DNA of 64,000 nt from an uncultured Sphingobacterium sp. (GTDB lineage: Bacteria; Bacteroidota; Bacteroidia; Chitinophagales; Chitinophagaceae): NCBI GenBank assembly GCA_964441425.1, contig CAYTXC010000006.1, positions 49,727 through 113,726 of the forward strand, read 5' to 3'. Positions 19,793 through 50,415 of the stretch are shown here, in pieces. The translations under genes were made by a program, and so were the position numbers. The notes beneath the pieces were generated by a model. It saw only the letters and a list, made by a program, of their open reading frames with translations, did not search any database and was not told where the DNA came from. Each line of letters starts with the position of its first letter. Positions within the stretch are counted from its first letter, which is position 1.

Positions 19793-19870
19793 GATCAGAG
19801 ACCAAATACGAAAGTATTGTGAAAATTTTGGTTTAAGGATTTCGACAAAGATATCTGTTATCTTTGCCAA

Positions 19871-20620
19871 ATGCCGAAATATGCGCATGATAATGTTGTT
19901 CCATTTGAAGATTCCAACGCTTCAAAAAAGGAGCAGGTGGCCAAAATGTTTGATCAAATCGCAGGCAGGTATGATTTCCTAAACCGATTTTTGTCGGCCG
20001 GGATAGATATCTATTGGAGGAAAGTTATGCTGAAAAAGCTGAAACCCCTTCAACCTAAAGTCATACTGGATGTAGCTACCGGTACAGCAGATGTGGCTTT
20101 GATGGCGGAAAGAATGTTAAAGCCGGAACAGATCATTGGAATTGATATTTCAGTAGGCATGCTGGATCTGGGCCGTAATAAAATTGAACAAAAAAAGCTA
20201 TCACATATCATCACCCTTCAAAAAGGCGATAGTGAGCATATAGAATTCCCGGATAACCATTTTGATGCAGTGACCGTGGCTTTCGGCGTTCGTAATTTTG
20301 AAAACCTTGAGAAAGGACTTACTGAAATTTTACGGGTTCTTAAACCCGGCGGACAACTTTGTGTTCTCGAATTTTCTAAACCAAACTTACCAGGTATTGA
20401 ACAACTCTACCATTTGTATTTAGGTATCATCGCTCCTGAGATCGCTAAAATGATTTCAAAAAATAAAAAAGCGTATGCATATCTCAACGACTCAGTAAGA
20501 GCTTTCCCAGAAGGAAGAGCATTTACGGATATCATGGAAAAAACAGGTTTTAAAGACATCACATGCAAACGGTTAAGTTTAGGAATCAGCAGCTTGTACA
20601 CGGGAAAAAAGCCGTACTGA
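19871..20620 (+). CDS. menG: Demethylmenaquinone methyltransferase MenG/UbiE
   Basis: MFDQIAGRYDFLN, LDVATGTAD, AFGVRN, LKPGG. Confidence 0.93.
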   Translation: MPKYAHDNVVPFEDSNASKKEQVAKMFDQIAGRYDFLNRFLSAGIDIYWRKVMLKKLKPLQPKVILDVATGTADVALMAERMLKPEQIIGIDISVGMLDLGRNKIEQKKLSHIITLQKGDSEHIEFPDNHFDAVTVAFGVRNFENLEKGLTEILRVLKPGGQLCVLEFSKPNLPGIEQLYHLYLGIIAPEIAKMISKNKKAYAYLNDSVRAFPEGRAFTDIMEKTGFKDITCKRLSLGISSLYTGKKPY

Positions 20621-27886: not shown

Positions 27887-27920
27887 ATCAACCTCCAAGG
27901 TAACTACCTTGGAGGTTGAT
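27887..27920. repeat. Perfect 15-bp inverted repeat just downstream of the lipoprotein gene
   Basis: ATCAACCTCCAAGGT-AACT-ACCTTGGAGGTTGAT; no clear U-tract on either side. Confidence 0.85.
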
Positions 27921-27926
27921 ATTGAT

Positions 27927-28475
27927 TTATCTAAGGCGAACCCCGAAATCTAGTTCTACATCTGTTTCACCTTTTGTTACAGGATCACCTGCCGCTTTCG
28001 CAGCTGGTTTATGCTTCAAGGTGATTTTAATACTTCCTTTTCCAGGTGCCCCTGCAGTCCAGGTTGATGTCAACCCTAATGGAAGTCCTTTGCTATCAGC
28101 ATCTAGATTTGAAACATTTAATGCCACACCCGTTGGTTGAAAATACAGCTGGTGATCATTGGCTTCAGCCTTGATTTCAGTTGTAATATTTTCAGCAGGA
28201 CTCGTACTCTCATTCAAAAATTCAAGACTAACGGCATAGCTTTTGTTAGCGTTCAGTATAATACTGTCAAATTTTGTAGGTGCTAATCCACCAGGACCAT
28301 CGCTATCCTTAAATGAAAAGGTTTGCACGTTGGTTGTTCCTGTTTCTGTAACTACTACATTTACAGAGGTGATCAATTCTTCTTCATCATGATCATGGTC
28401 ATCTTTCCCACATGATGTAATTAAACCTACACTGGTCATCAAAAAAAACATGGCTAACATTCTACTTTTCTTCAT
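27927..28475 (-). CDS. Lipoprotein with His/Asp/Glu-rich N-terminus, coupled to the TonB-dependent receptor
   Basis: Lipobox-like ITS-C followed by GKDDHDHDEEE. Overlaps the receptor 3' end by 14 nt. Confidence 0.8.
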   Translation of the reverse strand: MKKSRMLAMFFLMTSVGLITSCGKDDHDHDEEELITSVNVVVTETGTTNVQTFSFKDSDGPGGLAPTKFDSIILNANKSYAVSLEFLNESTSPAENITTEIKAEANDHQLYFQPTGVALNVSNLDADSKGLPLGLTSTWTAGAPGKGSIKITLKHKPAAKAAGDPVTKGETDVELDFGVRLR

Positions 28476-30882
28476 TGTGTTTCATTTTTTGTTTTATAAT
28501 CAAAGGGACTTTAATACGAAGTGAAATATTTCTTCCCATATCATCCGCGAAATAGCGAAATGCATTCATATAATCTCGGTATCGGATATTGAATAGATTG
28601 GTCACCGATAAAATAATACTCAAGTCACGATGCTGCACATCTAATTTGGTACCGAATTCTATTCCGGATAATGTATATGCTGGAGGTGGAGCAGCATAGT
28701 CGGAAGTTTTAATAGTCCCACCCCCAGTAACAGGAAGTTCAATATTACCAGTTGAAGGAACACGAGTTTGTTGACGCACATGCTGCACAGATGCTTTCAT
28801 ATAAGATTGACGGAATTTTCTTCCATCTTTTAAAAGATATTCAGCACTCACTTCGTATCTGTCAGCAGGCATTTGTATCAGCCAATCGCTGGTTACGAGA
28901 TCCTTTGCACGCAGTAAACTTCCCTTAGCCTGCATTCGCAGATGATGATCAACTAGGTAAGAAAGCTGAATATCTATTCCATTCAACCTTGCATCCGTTT
29001 GATCAAAGGCAAAAGTTGGGAAAGCACCGCGAATCGTCAATTGTGGTGGAAAAGAAGGCCTCAAATAAATGAAGTCCGAGATTCGTTTATGGTAAACATC
29101 TATATCAAAAAATAATTTTTCGTCGTGGTATTCAATTGCCGATGCAATACCTAAAGACCTTTCCGTTTGGAGATCAGAACGACCTGTTTCAATTCTTGCT
29201 GCTCCATGATGCAACCCATTACTGAATAATTCGTTGACTTGTGGAGCGCGCCAGGCCGTTGTTCCAGACAATACAAATTTCCAATTATCTTGATGATAAT
29301 TCAGTCCAATATTTCCGGATAACCCATTGAAATTTCTTTTACCATATGCTATTCCCGGAGCCAATTCTCCTCCCATTAAAGTATGGAAAGGTGCCGCATC
29401 ATTATCAGTTATGTTTCGAATATTTTTATAATCAAATCGAGCTCCGCCTTCTATTACCCAATTACCAATTGTATATTTCTCCGCAATAAAAAGACCAAGA
29501 GAAAGTGATTGATAATTCGGAATAAAATATCGGTATGTATATTGATTGATCTGATACATTCCGCTGATACCAACAGAACCCTTCAAGCCTTTACCTCCAA
29601 AATGATCCAGCACAGCATCTAGCCCTGCAGTATGTAATCCTAATTGTAATTGTGGAGCTATACGGGTAGTTGAACGTACAATATCATATTCTCTACGTTG
29701 ATTGAATTGGTATGATCCAGTTACATTTATTCTTGCCGAATGGCCTATATCCTTGAATGATTTCCACTTTAGCAAATGATGCATTACCTGTTGATATGGA
29801 CGATCGATACGATAGGTAAATGGCACATTTTTTATATATGTCGGTGGCTCACCTAAACGGATAGCTTCCATCAAATCCGTGACATTTCCAATGTGAGAGC
29901 CTGAGAAAATCCCAATACGTGTACTGAACAAACTATAAAAAAATTCAGAACCGGAATGCTGCTTTCGCTTACCAACTGTAGCTGACATATTCAATTCCTC
30001 TATTCCTGAATTCGCCAACCCATAATCTGGTGTGCGTGCATTTCCTCCTCGCTTTGCGGTTCCCTGTAACCTCCAAGCAATATCTTTTTTAGCATGAGGA
30101 CTGCCCTCAATCATAGCAGATAAAACACCTTGTCTATTGTTGCTGAAAAAAGCGGTGTTCCATTCCCCATTAACGGTAGCAGTACCATAAGGAAGAAGTT
30201 TAGGTTCTACCAACACTACTCCACCTATGGCATCGCCTCCATAACGAATAGACGAAGCCCCCTTAATAACCGTCAAACGATTCGCTAAAAAAGGATCAAT
30301 TTCCGGAGCATGTTCACTACCCCATTGCTGACCTTCCTGTCGAATGCCATTATTTAGGATTAATACCCGATTACTATGTAAACCATGAATAACGGGTTTA
30401 TAGATATTATTTCCTGTTTGTAATGTAGTTACACCATTTATAGTCCGCAAAGATTCACCCAAACTTAATCCACGAGTGGCATCCAATTGTCTGCCTTTCA
30501 ATTCTGCAACTACAGCAGTGGTACCAGCACCAGCTGATCCACGTACGATTACTTCCTGAAGCTCAGCAGCAGCATGTCCCAATTCAATATCCCTGTGCAG
30601 ATCTCCTTTAATATCAATATGTATAACCTCTTCCTTGCAACTTATGTGGGAAATGACCAATGTATAACTACCCGGACATAACCCCTTCACGCTATACTCC
30701 CCTTTCCTAGTTGTGACCACAGAACGATTCAGTTCACGCACCAAAATAGTTGCATCTGCCAATCGCGCGCGCGTATCTAAATCGCTTACGACTCCAGAAA
30801 CCTCCAGCACACATTGCGCCGAACTGAATGCCGGAAACAAGGTCACCCCTAACAGAAACAAAAAAAAGGTGCATGTTCGCAT
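28462..30882 (-). CDS. TonB-dependent receptor with N-terminal carboxypeptidase-regulatory-like domain (candidate metal uptake)
   Basis: Signal peptide ending SA-Q; plug motif NGIRQEGQQWGSEHAPEID, VIKGASSIRYG; C-terminal GRNISLRIKVP. Confidence 0.92.
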   Translation of the reverse strand: MRTCTFFLFLLGVTLFPAFSSAQCVLEVSGVVSDLDTRARLADATILVRELNRSVVTTRKGEYSVKGLCPGSYTLVISHISCKEEVIHIDIKGDLHRDIELGHAAAELQEVIVRGSAGAGTTAVVAELKGRQLDATRGLSLGESLRTINGVTTLQTGNNIYKPVIHGLHSNRVLILNNGIRQEGQQWGSEHAPEIDPFLANRLTVIKGASSIRYGGDAIGGVVLVEPKLLPYGTATVNGEWNTAFFSNNRQGVLSAMIEGSPHAKKDIAWRLQGTAKRGGNARTPDYGLANSGIEELNMSATVGKRKQHSGSEFFYSLFSTRIGIFSGSHIGNVTDLMEAIRLGEPPTYIKNVPFTYRIDRPYQQVMHHLLKWKSFKDIGHSARINVTGSYQFNQRREYDIVRSTTRIAPQLQLGLHTAGLDAVLDHFGGKGLKGSVGISGMYQINQYTYRYFIPNYQSLSLGLFIAEKYTIGNWVIEGGARFDYKNIRNITDNDAAPFHTLMGGELAPGIAYGKRNFNGLSGNIGLNYHQDNWKFVLSGTTAWRAPQVNELFSNGLHHGAARIETGRSDLQTERSLGIASAIEYHDEKLFFDIDVYHKRISDFIYLRPSFPPQLTIRGAFPTFAFDQTDARLNGIDIQLSYLVDHHLRMQAKGSLLRAKDLVTSDWLIQMPADRYEVSAEYLLKDGRKFRQSYMKASVQHVRQQTRVPSTGNIELPVTGGGTIKTSDYAAPPPAYTLSGIEFGTKLDVQHRDLSIILSVTNLFNIRYRDYMNAFRYFADDMGRNISLRIKVPLIIKQKMKHNEEK

Positions 30883-30887
30883 GCACC
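30860..30887 (-). terminator. Intrinsic terminator-like hairpin overlapping the receptor start codon
   Basis: Minus strand GGTGCATG-CGAA-CATGCACC-T8. The ATG at 30882-30880 lies in the 5' arm. Confidence 0.7.
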
Positions 30888-30904
30888 AAAAATAAGAAAA
30901 AAAT

Positions 30905-30933
30905 TAATTTTTGCAATAATGTTGCAAAAATTA
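30905..30933. promoter_or_regulatory. 12-5-12 perfect inverted repeat: candidate repressor operator for the receptor promoter
   Basis: TAATTTTTGCAA-TAATG-TTGCAAAAATTA covers the expected -33 position of the TATTTTTG box at 30887-30894. Confidence 0.55.
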
Positions 30934-32106
30934 GAGTCGCTCAATTATCCCTGCAATACCTTGGCCCCCGCCAACGCAGGCTGTCACGATACCATATTTT
31001 TTATTGAGTCGCTTTAGATCCCCGAGCAACTGTACGGTTAATTTAGTACCTGTACAACCCAATGGATGGCCAAGGGCAATAGCTCCACCATTGATATTGA
31101 TAATATCGGGATTTAGGCCTAGTGTTCGGATAACCGCTAGGGATTGAGAAGCAAATGCCTCATTTAATTCTATGAGATCAATTTGTTGCATGGACAGACC
31201 AGCTTGTTTCAATACTTTAGGTATGGCTTCTACAGGACCGATACCCATAACACGAGGGGGCACACCGGCAACGGCTGAACCAACCAATCTTCCAATGGGA
31301 GTCAGGCCTAGTTCATTTACCAAACGTTCACTCATTACCAGAACAAAAGCTGCACCATCACTTGTTTGTGAAGAGTTGCCTGCAGTCACTGAACCGTTTT
31401 GTGCGAAAGCAGGTTTTAACTTTCCTAAGGCCTCTAGTGTAGTATCAGCCCGAACACCTTCATCGGTATCTATCGTAAATTGACGCATTTGTCGTTTTCC
31501 TTTTTCATCCAGATAGATTTCGTCTATGGTAATTGGCAAAATTCCCTCCTTAAAATAACCATTCTGGATAGCCTGCATGGCTTTCTGATGAGAAGCCAAT
31601 GCAAATGCATCTTGATCTTCACGAGTAACCTTGTATTCATTGGCAACGGCTTCTGCAGTGAGTCCCATCCCTAAGTAATAATCAGGATCATCTTGAGCTA
31701 TGGAATATGCAGGTACTGTTTTCCAACCGGCACTCGGTACCATACTCATACTTTCAGTGCCTCCGGCAATGATACATTCTGCCATACCCATCCGGATCTT
31801 GGCAGTTGCAATAGCGATTGTTTCCAATCCAGACGCACAATAACGATTCACCGTCATACCTGGTGCGTGAATACCCACTGCACGTGCAGCGATGATTCGG
31901 CCAACCTGTAATCCCTGTTCTGCTTCCGGAACAGCATTACCAACAATCACATCATCCACCCTCGTCCGATCCAGCTGGGGTACACTAGCTAACAATCCTT
32001 TTATAACCTCTATGGCCAGATCATCGGGCCTTGTAAACCTAAAACCACCTCGCTTTGCTTTAGCAACGGCTGTTCTGTATCCTGCAACAATGTATGCTTC
32101 CTGCAT
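30931..32106 (-). CDS. Acetyl-CoA C-acyltransferase (thiolase)
   Basis: NRYCASG, NEAFASQ, GHPLGCTG, CVGGGQG. Start MQEAY at 32106. Confidence 0.95.
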   Translation of the reverse strand: MQEAYIVAGYRTAVAKAKRGGFRFTRPDDLAIEVIKGLLASVPQLDRTRVDDVIVGNAVPEAEQGLQVGRIIAARAVGIHAPGMTVNRYCASGLETIAIATAKIRMGMAECIIAGGTESMSMVPSAGWKTVPAYSIAQDDPDYYLGMGLTAEAVANEYKVTREDQDAFALASHQKAMQAIQNGYFKEGILPITIDEIYLDEKGKRQMRQFTIDTDEGVRADTTLEALGKLKPAFAQNGSVTAGNSSQTSDGAAFVLVMSERLVNELGLTPIGRLVGSAVAGVPPRVMGIGPVEAIPKVLKQAGLSMQQIDLIELNEAFASQSLAVIRTLGLNPDIININGGAIALGHPLGCTGTKLTVQLLGDLKRLNKKYGIVTACVGGGQGIAGIIERL

Positions 32107-32190
32107 AACTTCCTTATTTATGTTCTTAAAGGTACTCAAAAAATAAATTAGTTGCACAAACAACCAGTTTTTTCGTTTTATCTTAGCAGC

Positions 32191-33222
32191 ATGTATGATT
32201 TGATTCGGAATATATTGTTCCGTTTTGATGCTGAGCGGGTTCACTATTTTTCTATGAACAGTCTTCGGTATCTATGTGCCATTCCAGGGCTTCGATCAAT
32301 GCTCACGGCTTTATTTAAACCCAAAAATATACCTGTAACTGCATTTGGACTCAACTTCCGCAATCCAGTAGGATTAGCAGCTGGTTTTGATAAAAATGCT
32401 ACCTACCTCAATCTTCTGGATATGATGGGATTTGGACACGTGGAGATTGGAACGGTAACACCTCTGGCACAGGATGGAAATGATAAACCCAGATTATTTC
32501 GCTTACCTGCAGACAAAGCCATTATCAACAGAATGGGATTCAATAATGATGGTATGGATATCATTTCCAAAAGGCTACAACATTGGAGAAAAAAATATCC
32601 GCAGTCAAAAATGATTATTGGTGGAAATATCGGAAAAAATAAAGTGACCCCAAACGAAGAAGCCTGGAGCGATTACGTTAAATGTTTTAATGCACTTCAT
32701 CCTTTTGTAGATTATTTTATTGTGAATGTTAGTTCGCCAAATACACCTGGATTAAGGGAACTGCAGGAAAAGCCTGCATTAGAAAAAATATTTCATGCAT
32801 TAAAAGCTGAAAACGAAAAATTAAAGAAACCACTTCCGCTATTATTAAAAATTGCACCAGACCTTACGAATGATCAGCTGAATGATATCTGCACGTTGGC
32901 TATAGAATTAAAATTAAATGGATTGGTAGCCACCAATACAACCATTTCACGAGAGAACCTGTCTAGATCATCTGTTGAGCGTGCAAAAGAAATTGGTGCG
33001 GGTGGATTGAGTGGAAAACCCGTTCTGAAAAGATCAACTGAAGTACTGGATTATCTTTATAAGCATACTAAAGGAGAAATTGCCTTGATCGGATCAGGAG
33101 GCATATTCACGAGTGAAGAGGCTAAAGAAAAAATGCATCACGGAGCGAAGCTCGTTCAAGTATGGACAGGATTTGTATATGAAGGACCTTTTATAGTAAA
33201 AAATATTTGTAAAGATTTATAA
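32191..33222 (+). CDS. pyrD: Quinone-dependent dihydroorotate dehydrogenase (class 2)
   Basis: GLAAGFDKN, NRMGFNN, NVSSPNTPGLR, KIAPDL, GGLSG. Confidence 0.96.
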   Translation: MYDLIRNILFRFDAERVHYFSMNSLRYLCAIPGLRSMLTALFKPKNIPVTAFGLNFRNPVGLAAGFDKNATYLNLLDMMGFGHVEIGTVTPLAQDGNDKPRLFRLPADKAIINRMGFNNDGMDIISKRLQHWRKKYPQSKMIIGGNIGKNKVTPNEEAWSDYVKCFNALHPFVDYFIVNVSSPNTPGLRELQEKPALEKIFHALKAENEKLKKPLPLLLKIAPDLTNDQLNDICTLAIELKLNGLVATNTTISRENLSRSSVERAKEIGAGGLSGKPVLKRSTEVLDYLYKHTKGEIALIGSGGIFTSEEAKEKMHHGAKLVQVWTGFVYEGPFIVKNICKDL

Positions 33223-48025: not shown

Positions 48026-50278
48026 CTATACAGATTCAGTATCAAATCGCTCAACAGAATGAATACCGGACAATTGTTTCAAGCGGGTAAACAAATTCTC
48101 TAATTCCTCTTTGTCGTGTACAAAAAGTTTAATTGTCCCCTTGAAGACCCCTTCCTGGGCTTCAATGGTCAACCCCGCAATATTAATTCTCAACTCACCG
48201 GATATCAGATTCGTGATCTTGTTGATCACCCCCACATCATCCAGTCCAACAATATTGATACCGGTCAAAAAAGATATTTCTTTATTCTTCGCCCATTTTG
48301 TTTTCACCACCCTATGTCCAAACTGGGATAATAATCGGGTGGCATTTGGACAATTCGTACGGTGAATGATCAGCCCTTTACCCGTAGATACAAATCCAAA
48401 TACATCATCGCCAGGAATGGGCTTACAACAGTTTGCTAAGGTGTAAACGATCTTATCACTGGATTCTCCAAAAATGATCAACTCGGTATCTTTTTTAGAA
48501 ACAGCTTTCCCTGATTCTGTACCATCCCATTTATGATCGTGTTCCTGTTTTGCCGGCTTGGGAGGTTCCAACTTATCCCCTAATACATGAAACTCCTTTA
48601 ACTCATGCAAGTCGATAGTCTTAATGGCAATACGATAATAAAGGTCAAGCGCAGAGGATAGTTTATAAAAAGCGGTCAGGATTTCAATATTATGAGTGTG
48701 AAATCCCGCCCCCATATTTTCCAATTTACGTTGCAAAAGATACTTCCCATCCTCTGCCACTTTTCGTTTTTCCTCTTTTAACGCATCTTTTATTTTGCTC
48801 TTAGCCTTAGCTGATACTACAAAGTTCAACCAATCCTCTGAAGGTTTTTGCTTGTTCGAAGTGATGATCTCGATCTGGTCTCCGCTTCTTAATTCATGTG
48901 AGATCGGAACAAGTTTATGATTCACTTTTGCACCTATACATTTAGTACCAACAGCACTATGGATCGAGAAGGCGAAATCGAGAGCACTCGACCCTTTAGG
49001 AAGCATCTTTACATCACCTTTTGGCGTATATACATAGATCTCTTCAGTAAGGAATGATGTTTTAAAATCATGCAGAAAATCAATAGAACCAATATCCTGA
49101 TTGGATAGCATTTCACGGATCTGACCAAACCACTGATCAAATCGATCTTCATCTGCACCGCCCTCCTTGTATTTCCAATGAGCCGCAAGTCCCTTCTCAG
49201 CGATCTCATTCATTCTTTTTGAACGGATCTGCACCTCTACCCATTTACCTTGAGGGCCCATCACGGTGGTATGCAGAGCCTCATATCCATTTGACTTCGG
49301 ATTACTCAGCCAGTCGCGTAAACGTTCGGGTGAAGGAGTGTACATATCTGTAATAAGCGAATACACTTTCCAACAATCCTCTTTTTCCCTTTCTTGAGGA
49401 GAATTCAAAATGATTCTGATAGCAAAAAGATCATACACTTCTTCAAAACTCACCCCCTTTTTCTTCATCTTATTCCAAATAGAATGTATGGATTTTGGAC
49501 GGCCCTGAATTTCATATTGAAATTCTGCTTTATCCAACTTCTCTTTGATCGGTTTGATGAATTCGTTGATGTACCGAGTTCGTTCACGTTTTGTTTCAGC
49601 CAGTTTTCGAGCGATCTCTTTGTAAGTAGTAGGCTCCAGGTATTTCATCGACAAGTCTTCCAACTCTGTCTTGATATTGTAAATACCCATACGATGGGCG
49701 AGCGGAGCATAAACATAAACTGTTTCTGAAGCGATCTTCAATTGTTTCTCCTGCTTCATACTGTCCATCGTTCGCATATTATGCAAACGATCAGCCAGTT
49801 TGATCAAAATAACTCTTGGGTCATCTGTAAGCGTTAACAATATCTTCTTGAAATTCTCTGCCTGCTGGGTGGAGTTATTGTCCACCACATGAGAGATCTT
49901 GGTCAGTCCGTTAATAATCCGAGCGATTTCACTTCCGAATTCACGTTCTACATCTTCTACAGATACATCGGTATCTTCAACCGTATCGTGAAGAAGTGCA
50001 CAAATACTGGAACGTACCCCAAGACCAATTTCTTCTACACAAATTCTGGAAACAGCTATAGGATGTAGAATATAGGGCTCCCCACTTTTACGGCGCATGG
50101 TTTTATGAGCATCAACAGCCAATTCAAAAGCTCTGCGCACCAGTTCTTTATCTCCTGGTTTCAATTTAGGCTTCAGTACCCTAAGCAGTCCGCGGTATTG
50201 ACGTACGATCTCTTTTTTCTCCTGCTCTTCATTAAGGGTATATTTTGGCACTGACGTATGTTGCTCCAACATCTCCAT
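48026..50278 (-). CDS. relA: Bifunctional (p)ppGpp synthetase/hydrolase (long RSH)
   Basis: HD motif (LLHDTVED), synthetase motifs GRPKSIHSI and YDLFAIR, TGS (YTPKGD) and ACT domains. Confidence 0.95.
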   Translation of the reverse strand: MEMLEQHTSVPKYTLNEEQEKKEIVRQYRGLLRVLKPKLKPGDKELVRRAFELAVDAHKTMRRKSGEPYILHPIAVSRICVEEIGLGVRSSICALLHDTVEDTDVSVEDVEREFGSEIARIINGLTKISHVVDNNSTQQAENFKKILLTLTDDPRVILIKLADRLHNMRTMDSMKQEKQLKIASETVYVYAPLAHRMGIYNIKTELEDLSMKYLEPTTYKEIARKLAETKRERTRYINEFIKPIKEKLDKAEFQYEIQGRPKSIHSIWNKMKKKGVSFEEVYDLFAIRIILNSPQEREKEDCWKVYSLITDMYTPSPERLRDWLSNPKSNGYEALHTTVMGPQGKWVEVQIRSKRMNEIAEKGLAAHWKYKEGGADEDRFDQWFGQIREMLSNQDIGSIDFLHDFKTSFLTEEIYVYTPKGDVKMLPKGSSALDFAFSIHSAVGTKCIGAKVNHKLVPISHELRSGDQIEIITSNKQKPSEDWLNFVVSAKAKSKIKDALKEEKRKVAEDGKYLLQRKLENMGAGFHTHNIEILTAFYKLSSALDLYYRIAIKTIDLHELKEFHVLGDKLEPPKPAKQEHDHKWDGTESGKAVSKKDTELIIFGESSDKIVYTLANCCKPIPGDDVFGFVSTGKGLIIHRTNCPNATRLLSQFGHRVVKTKWAKNKEISFLTGINIVGLDDVGVINKITNLISGELRINIAGLTIEAQEGVFKGTIKLFVHDKEELENLFTRLKQLSGIHSVERFDTESV

Positions 50279-50415
50279 ATATCAAATGTACGAATAGACA
50301 TTGGCGAATTTTTGTTTAAAAAGCCAAAGTTTTCAGGCAATTTTGGGAACTATTCCTTTTTTTACCTGCTAAAATTTACAAAATCAAACCTTTTACGTAT
50401 TTTTGCGCCCCCTTA

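Follow-up and report, generated by a model that had tools for sequence, protein, structure and literature searches.

A terminator-like hairpin around the predicted leaderless start of a TonB-dependent receptor gene in an uncultured Sphingobacterium sp.

The junction between a thiolase gene and the gene for a TonB-dependent receptor was analyzed in a 64,000-nucleotide (nt) stretch of DNA, hereafter the window, from an uncultured Sphingobacterium sp. (contig CAYTXC010000006.1). Both genes lie on the minus strand, and the 48-nt intergenic region that separates them appears to form a compact module that combines an operator, a promoter, a leaderless start and a terminator straddling the start codon, a reading of the sequence that we hold with moderate confidence. 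The anatomy of the junction, its conservation, its spacing, its folding energetics and the enrichment of comparable structures in relatives were established. An earlier note on this DNA had proposed a self-insulating promoter and terminator at this site; its case is strengthened here by the anatomy, the conservation and the comparative predictions, and the termination itself, the transcription start site (TSS) and the escape of the receptor's own transcript stay at the level of prediction. The genes and elements concerned are the following.

30931..32106 (start approximate), minus strand: thiolase gene (acetyl-CoA acetyltransferase family), with Pfam Thiolase_N and Thiolase_C
28462..30882, minus strand: TonB-dependent receptor gene, 806 amino acids (aa), with CarboxypepD_reg, Plug and TonB beta-barrel (Pfam)
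30905..30933, minus strand: 12-bp perfect palindrome UAAUUUUUGCAA-CAUUA-UUGCAAAAAUUA, core TTGCAA-N5-TTGCAA, which includes the thiolase stop codon
30914..30916, minus strand: TTG able to serve as a -33 element, 19 nt upstream of the -7 box
30887..30894, minus strand: sigma-A -7 box TATTTTTG, consensus TAnnTTTG (-12 to -5), assigned from sequence and conservation
30882, minus strand: predicted TSS, the A of the receptor ATG, from the box-to-TSS spacing
30868..30887, minus strand: 8-bp stem-loop GGUGCAUG-CGAA-CAUGCACC (as DNA, GGTGCATG-CGAA-CATGCACC), from RNAfold and conservation
30860..30867, minus strand: U8 tract right after the stem, encoding Phe6, Phe7 and the two first bases of Leu8

Downstream of the thiolase stop codon (TAA, 30933-30931), the minus strand reads TTTTTGCAACATTATTGCAAAAATTAATTTTTTTCT, TATTTTTG, the spacer GTGC (30886-30883), the receptor ATG (30882-30880), the loop CGAA (30879-30876), the 3' arm CATGCACC (30875-30868) and T8. 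The 8-bp stem and U8 that the earlier note had placed soon after the thiolase stop were confirmed from the sequence and by RNAfold, which paired GGUGCAUG perfectly with CAUGCACC over 8 bp; the distance to the stop is 43 nt, compared to the figure of about 45 given before. Its description of the two arms was equally borne out. The 5' arm consists of the G of the -7 box, the 4-nt spacer and the receptor AUG, and the 3' arm (codons 3-5) and the U-tract (Phe6, Phe7 and part of Leu8) lie inside the receptor coding sequence. Absent from that description was the palindrome at 30905-30933, a second hairpin directly upstream that also folds as an A/U-rich RNA hairpin.

The start-straddling hairpin has the sequence characteristics of an intrinsic terminator, namely a GC-rich stem-loop directly followed by at least six U, 43 nt past a co-directional stop codon. 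The 96-nt junction folds at -25.4 kcal/mol, compared to -13.5 ± 2.7 kcal/mol for shuffled sequences (z = -4.5), and 0 of 200 shuffles folded as well. A consensus scan scored the site as terminator-like, with eight pairs, five of them G-C, and the tail TTTTTTTTGT. Canonical hairpin-plus-T-run sites are few in the window (five distinct sites in 64 kb, both strands), the junction site having the best tail among them; the hairpin-plus-T-run scan gave 8 raw hits, compared to ~2.7 raw hits in shuffles. The position of the terminator behind the thiolase gene is kept at six orthologous loci with identical gene order. The folding energy depends strongly on where the RNA begins: the full stem is worth -11.8 kcal/mol, whereas RNA that starts at -1 or +1 makes just a 3-bp helix of -1.7 kcal/mol, away from the U-run. 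Five of the eight stem pairs are supplied by bases -5 to -1 relative to the predicted TSS.

The same hairpin could act on the receptor's own mRNA if the TSS lay upstream of the stem. It would then be a regulated attenuator or a lock on the AUG, and the stem might be opened by a protein, a small RNA, temperature or a metal. The AUG is sequestered in the stem, the stems of relatives with a leader occlude the AUG too, and RNA contigs span the junction (the last two points are taken up below). However, there is no room for a second promoter, since just 4 nt lie between the ATG and the sole conserved -7 box, whose last G is in the stem. No alternative (anti-terminator) pairing was found in the junction fold by RNAfold, an Rfam scan returned no family at gathering score (best TarB, 25.7 versus 80 bits) and the conserved operator already gives a regulatory input at the DNA level. 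We therefore regard action on the receptor's own mRNA as quite improbable. Membership of the riboswitches or leader attenuators was rejected, the junction having no mutually exclusive folds and no known aptamer. Translation-coupled attenuation, which the earlier note had named as its alternative, is unlikely at the main hairpin because the stop codon lies 43 nt upstream, beyond the reach of a terminating ribosome.

The palindrome at 30905-30933 was likewise rejected as the main thiolase terminator. Its sequence is conserved across families beyond what pairing would need, it is present without the thiolase gene, and the T-run that follows it is not conserved. It would also make a poor thiolase terminator because its 5' arm includes the stop codon, which a terminating ribosome would cover.

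The geometry of the promoter indicates that the receptor mRNA is probably leaderless, with its predicted TSS at 30882. In Bacteroidota, the -7 box TAnnTTTG lies 4-5 nt from the TSS (PMC6847099) and spans -12 to -5 (PMC9723704), as part of a -33/-7 consensus (PMC6847099, PMC7366714). Because the 4-nt spacer at the junction equals the published box-to-TSS distance, the A of ATG 30882 is the predicted +1. Leaderless or near-leaderless mRNAs make up ~4-5% of mRNAs in three Bacteroidota with mapped TSSs (PMC7366714, PMC9723704, PMC6847099). ATG 30882 is the first start codon in the 806-aa receptor open reading frame (ORF). The only nearby alternative start in the window is TTG at codon 8, which is TTA in the commonest natural strain, and the ortholog at locus L004 has no other start codon inside its signal peptide. 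The order of box, four nucleotides and ATG is invariant in 12 lineages, and the spacers themselves vary (GTGC, GGGC, GCAC, GCAG, ACCC, AACC and GGGT).

Three genes in the window share this layout, the receptor gene included. At the other two, exactly 4 nt separate TAnnTTTG from the first ATG of a long ORF (19859-19873, plus strand, ATG at 19871; 50278-50290, minus strand, ATG at 50278). These ORFs encode 249 aa and 750 aa, respectively, and both are free of a start-straddling hairpin. Leaderless starts may be fairly common in this organism. At a related locus, L210 (1786-1803), the database entry for protein P0016 begins at an internal ATG, and an in-frame ATG five codons upstream lies 4 nt after a -7 box (MRGKWMVRAV...); the gene caller probably missed a leaderless start there.

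Conservation was assessed in a close clade of six orthologous loci (L001-L006) with 73-81% protein identity; searching species-representative genomes with an alignment added 80 loci, and exact-protein look-ups added four more. The six loci share the gene order dihydroorotate dehydrogenase (divergent), thiolase, receptor, 182-aa protein, DUF2721 and ABC transporter. Synonymous sites are near saturation in this clade, as only 12.8% of the codons of conserved residues are identical in all six orthologs. The stem is nevertheless paired in 47 of 48 cells (97.9%). Save for one mismatch, changes are limited to two free loop positions (CGAA, CGTA, CGAT, CGAG and CGCG) or are wobble-compatible (U-G in L004 and G-U in L006), and receptor residue 3 varies among T, S and A through the loop base alone. 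The U tract is T8-T9 in five of the six orthologs and is interrupted in L002. In DNA consensus contigs from four metagenomes the stem is invariant and T8 carries no indel. This pattern of sequence conservation indicates that the stem is under selection.

Two other explanations were weighed against the same alignments. The inverted repeat GGTGCATG/CATGCACC might be bound as DNA by a second dimeric regulator or by a roadblock protein instead of folding as RNA, as would suit a perfect DNA palindrome that is sequence-conserved in the clade without double compensatory changes. However, the two G-U-compatible stem changes keep RNA pairing and break DNA symmetry, relatives with a leader pair wholly different sequences at the same position, and the adjoining U8 fits a terminator; we consider a DNA site very improbable. 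Hardly credible is the proposal that T8 in codons 6-8 is a slipped-strand phase-variation switch of a surface receptor, to which the hairpin would be incidental. A homopolymer in the first codons of an outer-membrane protein gene is what such a switch would call for, but eight bases are short for the purpose, all orthologs are in frame, and the consensus contigs of four DNA metagenomes, like the RNA contigs, carry no indel, although contigs hide rare variants.

A second group of orthologs carries the same promoter in a different layout. Here, the box-to-ATG distance is mostly 16 nt (range 16-23), giving a predicted leader of ~12-15 nt in most; the upstream stop codon adjoins the operator in most of these leadered loci and is ~20-60 nt off in a few. 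RNAfold predicted stems in this group in which a 5' arm that begins with the box G and takes in the discriminator pairs with the AUG or with codons 2-4. The stem sequences differ from locus to locus (GACUCU/GGGGUC, GGCUCC/GGAGCU, GACCUU/GAGGUC, GGUUUC/GAAAUC, GCCC/GGGC and others). Native arm pairs reach -5.7 to -6.0 kcal/mol, compared to -3.9 to -4.6 kcal/mol for cross-locus pairs among 15 non-redundant loci (permutation p = 0.0006-0.005 over four parameter settings). The covariation in orthologs for which the earlier note had called was thus found in the leadered loci, whose native arms beat cross pairs, and not as double compensatory change in the six close loci.

The contribution of the bases in front of the TSS was measured by comparing the folding energy of RNA from -5 to that of RNA from +1. 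The gain from bases -5 to -1 averaged 9.7 kcal/mol in the window's clade (Mann-Whitney p = 2e-5 versus controls) and 4.7 kcal/mol in the leadered group (Mann-Whitney p = 4e-7 versus controls), compared to a median of ~0.1-0.4 kcal/mol for 59 other -7-box control promoters. Leaderless relatives with a thiolase-receptor spacer of 104-167 nt (75 nt in L210) gained a mean of 0.55 kcal/mol (p = 0.74). The folding-gain result was robust to window length, TSS offset and 5-nt spacing. Loci in which the upstream gene lies near the promoter have structure that depends on pre-TSS bases, and loci with a spacer long enough to hold a separate terminator have none. In one long thiolase-receptor spacer (L209, 1634-1720), a large near-perfect inverted repeat of GGTTCTAGGT-like units was observed; the 215-nt junction of this locus folds at -71.5 kcal/mol, and the repeat may be REP-like or may serve as a large terminator.

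These comparisons bear on the possibility that the hairpin is an ordinary thiolase terminator, overlapping the next promoter and start through genome compactness with no selected straddling design; receptor expression and the terminator would then be functionally independent beyond the effect that any terminator has. The terminator is canonical and 43 nt past the stop, the intergenic region is just 48 nt, the window's clade is conserved without compensatory covariation and long-spacer relatives do without the hairpin, all of which this explanation would accommodate. It accounts less well for a 5' arm that is exactly box G, spacer and AUG in six lineages, for the strong enrichment over 59 control promoters, and for the leadered relatives, which independently have non-terminator stems on the same pre-TSS bases with sequence covariation; stems in relatives without U-tracts would be unexpected for a terminator that was simply squeezed in. 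Overall, we judge an ordinary terminator rather unlikely. The start-straddling module, which we prefer, may also be one instance of something wider. We put forward, tentatively and with less than even confidence, that start-straddling hairpins are a general, selected form of insulation in compact Bacteroidota genomes wherever a regulated promoter lies behind a constitutive co-directional gene. In such a scheme, evolution would bring the bases just upstream of the TSS into pairing with the start-codon region. Read-through RNA would be terminated or untranslatable, RNA from the gene's own start (leaderless or with a short leader) would be translatable, and the window would represent the extreme form, a full terminator that has come to lie within the coding sequence of a leaderless gene.

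The promoter on which this arrangement depends is itself well conserved. Sigma-A elements are present at the junction (TATTTTTG at 30894-30887 and TTG at 30916-30914, 19 nt apart), and the TTG-to-box spacing varies by no more than 1-2 nt across nearly all orthologous promoters (counted as 17-20, mode 18, which is one less than the from-TTG count of 19). The palindrome TTGCAA-yAnTr-TTGCAA followed at a near-fixed distance by TA..TTTG occurs at ~30 orthologous loci, and the combination of palindrome, 16-nt gap and TAnnTTTG is conserved before receptor orthologs in Chitinophagaceae and more distant Bacteroidota. The conservation of these elements indicates that the -7 box is functional and that the receptor has its own promoter. 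The palindrome is conserved in sequence, beyond mere pairing, as far as orthologs of 40-43% identity (Spirosomataceae and Dyadobacter), it is present where the upstream gene encodes a histidine kinase or a DUF1501 protein instead of a thiolase, and it occurs once in the window. Because it is conserved in sequence, independent of the thiolase and unique in the window, the palindrome is read here as an operator centered near -37 and not as a thiolase terminator. The motif TTGCAAyAnTrTTGCAA can also be written as a 7-1-7 repeat, TGCAAyA-n-TrTTGCA, with the -7 box 16 nt downstream, and the same motif is present at L107, L109, L130, L155 and L204; at L021 (2370-2409), two tandem operator palindromes stand upstream of the receptor promoter.

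To which regulator the palindrome might belong is suggested by the other genes that it precedes. A metagenome pattern scan for TTGCAA-N5-TTGCAA-N14-18-TAnnTTTG was too loose: TTTGCAA-like sequences are frequent in -33 regions, and most matches were therefore promoters of no relation to this one. The informative matches were confined to the fully palindromic subset, TTGCAAC-N3-GTTGCAA. The fully palindromic motif with a -7 box precedes the gene for a ZigA-type zinc chaperone GTPase (NF038288, 554 bits; cut-off 600) and, on metagenome contigs, those of two Fur-family regulators. Small membrane proteins are also encoded behind the palindrome and are labeled MerC-like from sequence reading, family models having matched nothing in the one scanned. 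On an unrelated metagenome contig, a homolog of the 182-aa lipoprotein encoded next to the receptor (31% identity, E = 2e-20) lies directly behind the palindrome and a -7 box. Since the palindrome precedes ZigA, Fur-family, MerC-like and lipoprotein-homolog genes, a Zur-type regulon is the best guess. The palindrome overlaps the promoter and is common to metal-homeostasis genes, as is characteristic of a Fur-family operator. It is a probable, if putative, Fur-family (Zur-like) operator of the receptor and is probably the Zur box of Chitinophagia and Cytophagia, and a regulated metal operon is plausible from these gene contexts. The receptor protein itself shows weak similarity to the NCBIfam haem and ZnuD receptor families, all under cut-off (95 versus 950 bits for the ZnuD model).

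We propose the following mechanism for the junction. A Fur-family (probably Zur) operator over the -33 region would repress the receptor promoter. RNA arriving from the thiolase gene would hold the whole stem and would be terminated at 30860-30867, and any read-through RNA escaping termination would keep the AUG buried in the stem; initiation in Bacteroidota depends on an unstructured start region (PMC6847099). RNA made from the receptor promoter would lack the 5' arm (-5 to -1), would form no terminator and would present a free 5'-terminal AUG. The promoter of origin would thus decide the fate of the RNA, and a repressible metal-uptake operon would be insulated from a constitutively expressed neighbor without extra intergenic space.

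RNA data were available as Logan contigs from 12 metatranscriptomes, which are short, unstranded and of low depth. In four lake libraries, thiolase contigs (depth 2.7-13) end at 30936-30950 without continuing into the receptor gene, and one RNA contig ends at 30861, inside the U-run. Each of four poly(A)-selected libraries from one study contains one short contig on the A/T-rich spacer at 30780-31024 and nothing else nearby, which looks like oligo-dT capture at an A-rich tract and not true expression. Taken together, the contigs are compatible with partial termination without being decisive, and they were weighed neither for nor against the model.

Several points speak against the start-straddling module as set out above. 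The stop of transcription in the U-tract, the start at 30882, the escape of RNA made from the receptor promoter, the regulator and the selective advantage of the arrangement are inferred and not observed, and the rule that places the TSS derives from Flavobacterium and Bacteroides and is carried over here to Chitinophagia. One of the six close orthologs, L002, has a G-A mismatch in the stem together with a broken U-tract. A formal covariation count found no double compensatory changes among the six, which show conservation only; taken by itself, the close clade leaves RNA structure and other constraint at the nucleotide level indistinguishable. The leadered stems have no clear U-tracts and are not canonical terminators; they would thus act at another step, by translational masking. 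The groups compared are phylogenetically related, and the rank-test p-values overstate independence, although the stems differ between lineages. Finally, four metatranscriptome contigs (30780-31083) cross the junction uninterrupted, which reflects either incomplete termination or carry-over of DNA or antisense RNA; poly(A)-selected libraries supplied three of these contigs, and the sequence there is rich in A on the plus strand.

The receptor begins with the signal peptide MRTCTFFLFLLGVTLFPAFSSA/QC and has ~4,400 homologs in a database search, the closest being from freshwater Bacteroidota and Chitinophagaceae metagenome-assembled genomes; DNA runs with this locus come from river, lake and aquaculture metagenomes. 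The mechanical thiolase ORF (30931-32244) has 437 aa from a GTG. Its likely start is ~46 codons further downstream, and thiolase orthologs are called at 391-392 aa (L001-L006 and L207-L209). Judging from these calls, translation probably begins ~391 codons before the stop, and not at the GTG at 32244. Downstream of the receptor lies one further gene.

27927..28475, minus strand: lipoprotein gene, 182 aa, overlapping the receptor stop

This gene is syntenic with the receptor in all close orthologs and is a probable operon partner. Separating it from DUF2721, at 27887-27920, is a perfect 15-bp hairpin with no T-run, which the terminator scan reported on both strands; the receptor-lipoprotein transcript may end there.

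Terminators normally lie wholly in untranslated spacer, upstream of the next promoter. The junction hairpin resembles known intrinsic terminators in its GC-rich 8-bp stem, 4-nt loop, immediate U8 and location 43 nt after a co-directional stop. It differs from them in that its 5' arm holds the -7 box G, predicted TSS and start codon of the next gene and its 3' arm and U-tract are coding sequence of that downstream gene. The closest analog is the fold-back protection of IS10. In IS10 and IS50 (Tn10 and Tn5), only read-through RNA has the 5' arm that hides the transposase start, and the elements' own transcripts are open. Davis, Simons and Kleckner are said to have described in 1985, in Cell (43:379), how IS10/Tn10 is guarded from outside transcription by this fold-back inhibition (cited in PMC13181058). 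The junction shares with these elements a 5' arm upstream of the element's own TSS (here predicted) and an AUG in the stem, and the leadered relatives follow the same logic. Unlike the insertion sequences, in which the effect is purely translational and guards a transposase, the junction belongs to a chromosomal TonB receptor in conserved synteny and adds a full terminator with a U-tract and a predicted leaderless start. It would work alike without being a member of that family.

Other known systems share parts of the arrangement. The leaderless mRNAs of Flavobacterium johnsoniae (PMC6847099), Bacteroides thetaiotaomicron (PMC7366714) and Flavobacterium psychrophilum (PMC9723704) have the same TAnnTTTG 4-5 nt from the TSS and are likewise a minority. 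Those surveys describe no upstream-gene terminator around a leaderless start, the TSS at the junction being predicted, and in the open-access literature no description was found of a terminator wrapped around a leaderless start. Zur regulons are known to include a TonB-dependent zinc receptor (ZnuD type) together with COG0523/ZigA chaperones (PMC2770081, PMC4176598). The junction resembles them in having a palindromic operator over the promoter of a TonB receptor operon, with the motif also before ZigA-like and Fur-family genes, but TTGCAAyAnTrTTGCAA is unlike the Zur boxes described from Proteobacteria and Firmicutes, and the match of the receptor to ZnuD is weak. As in leader-peptide and riboswitch attenuators, a terminator hairpin at the extreme 5' end of a gene would decide downstream transcription; unlike in those systems, there is no anti-terminator fold, leader peptide or ligand-binding domain at the junction, and the choice would be set by the origin of transcription.

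If this reading is true, ~75 nt accommodate the terminator of one gene together with the operator, promoter and leaderless start codon of its neighbor, and the point at which transcription starts would decide the fate of the RNA. Such a layout would explain how a repressible metal-uptake operon is kept silent behind an active gene in streamlined genomes at no intergenic cost. Terminator predictors that exclude coding sequence would miss sites of this kind, and gene callers can misplace leaderless starts, as in L210. The layout would offer a compact natural insulator design for Bacteroidota genetics, and the conserved palindrome indicates a probable Zur-box motif for Chitinophagia and Cytophagia. 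The start-straddling design may be general in compact Bacteroidota genomes.

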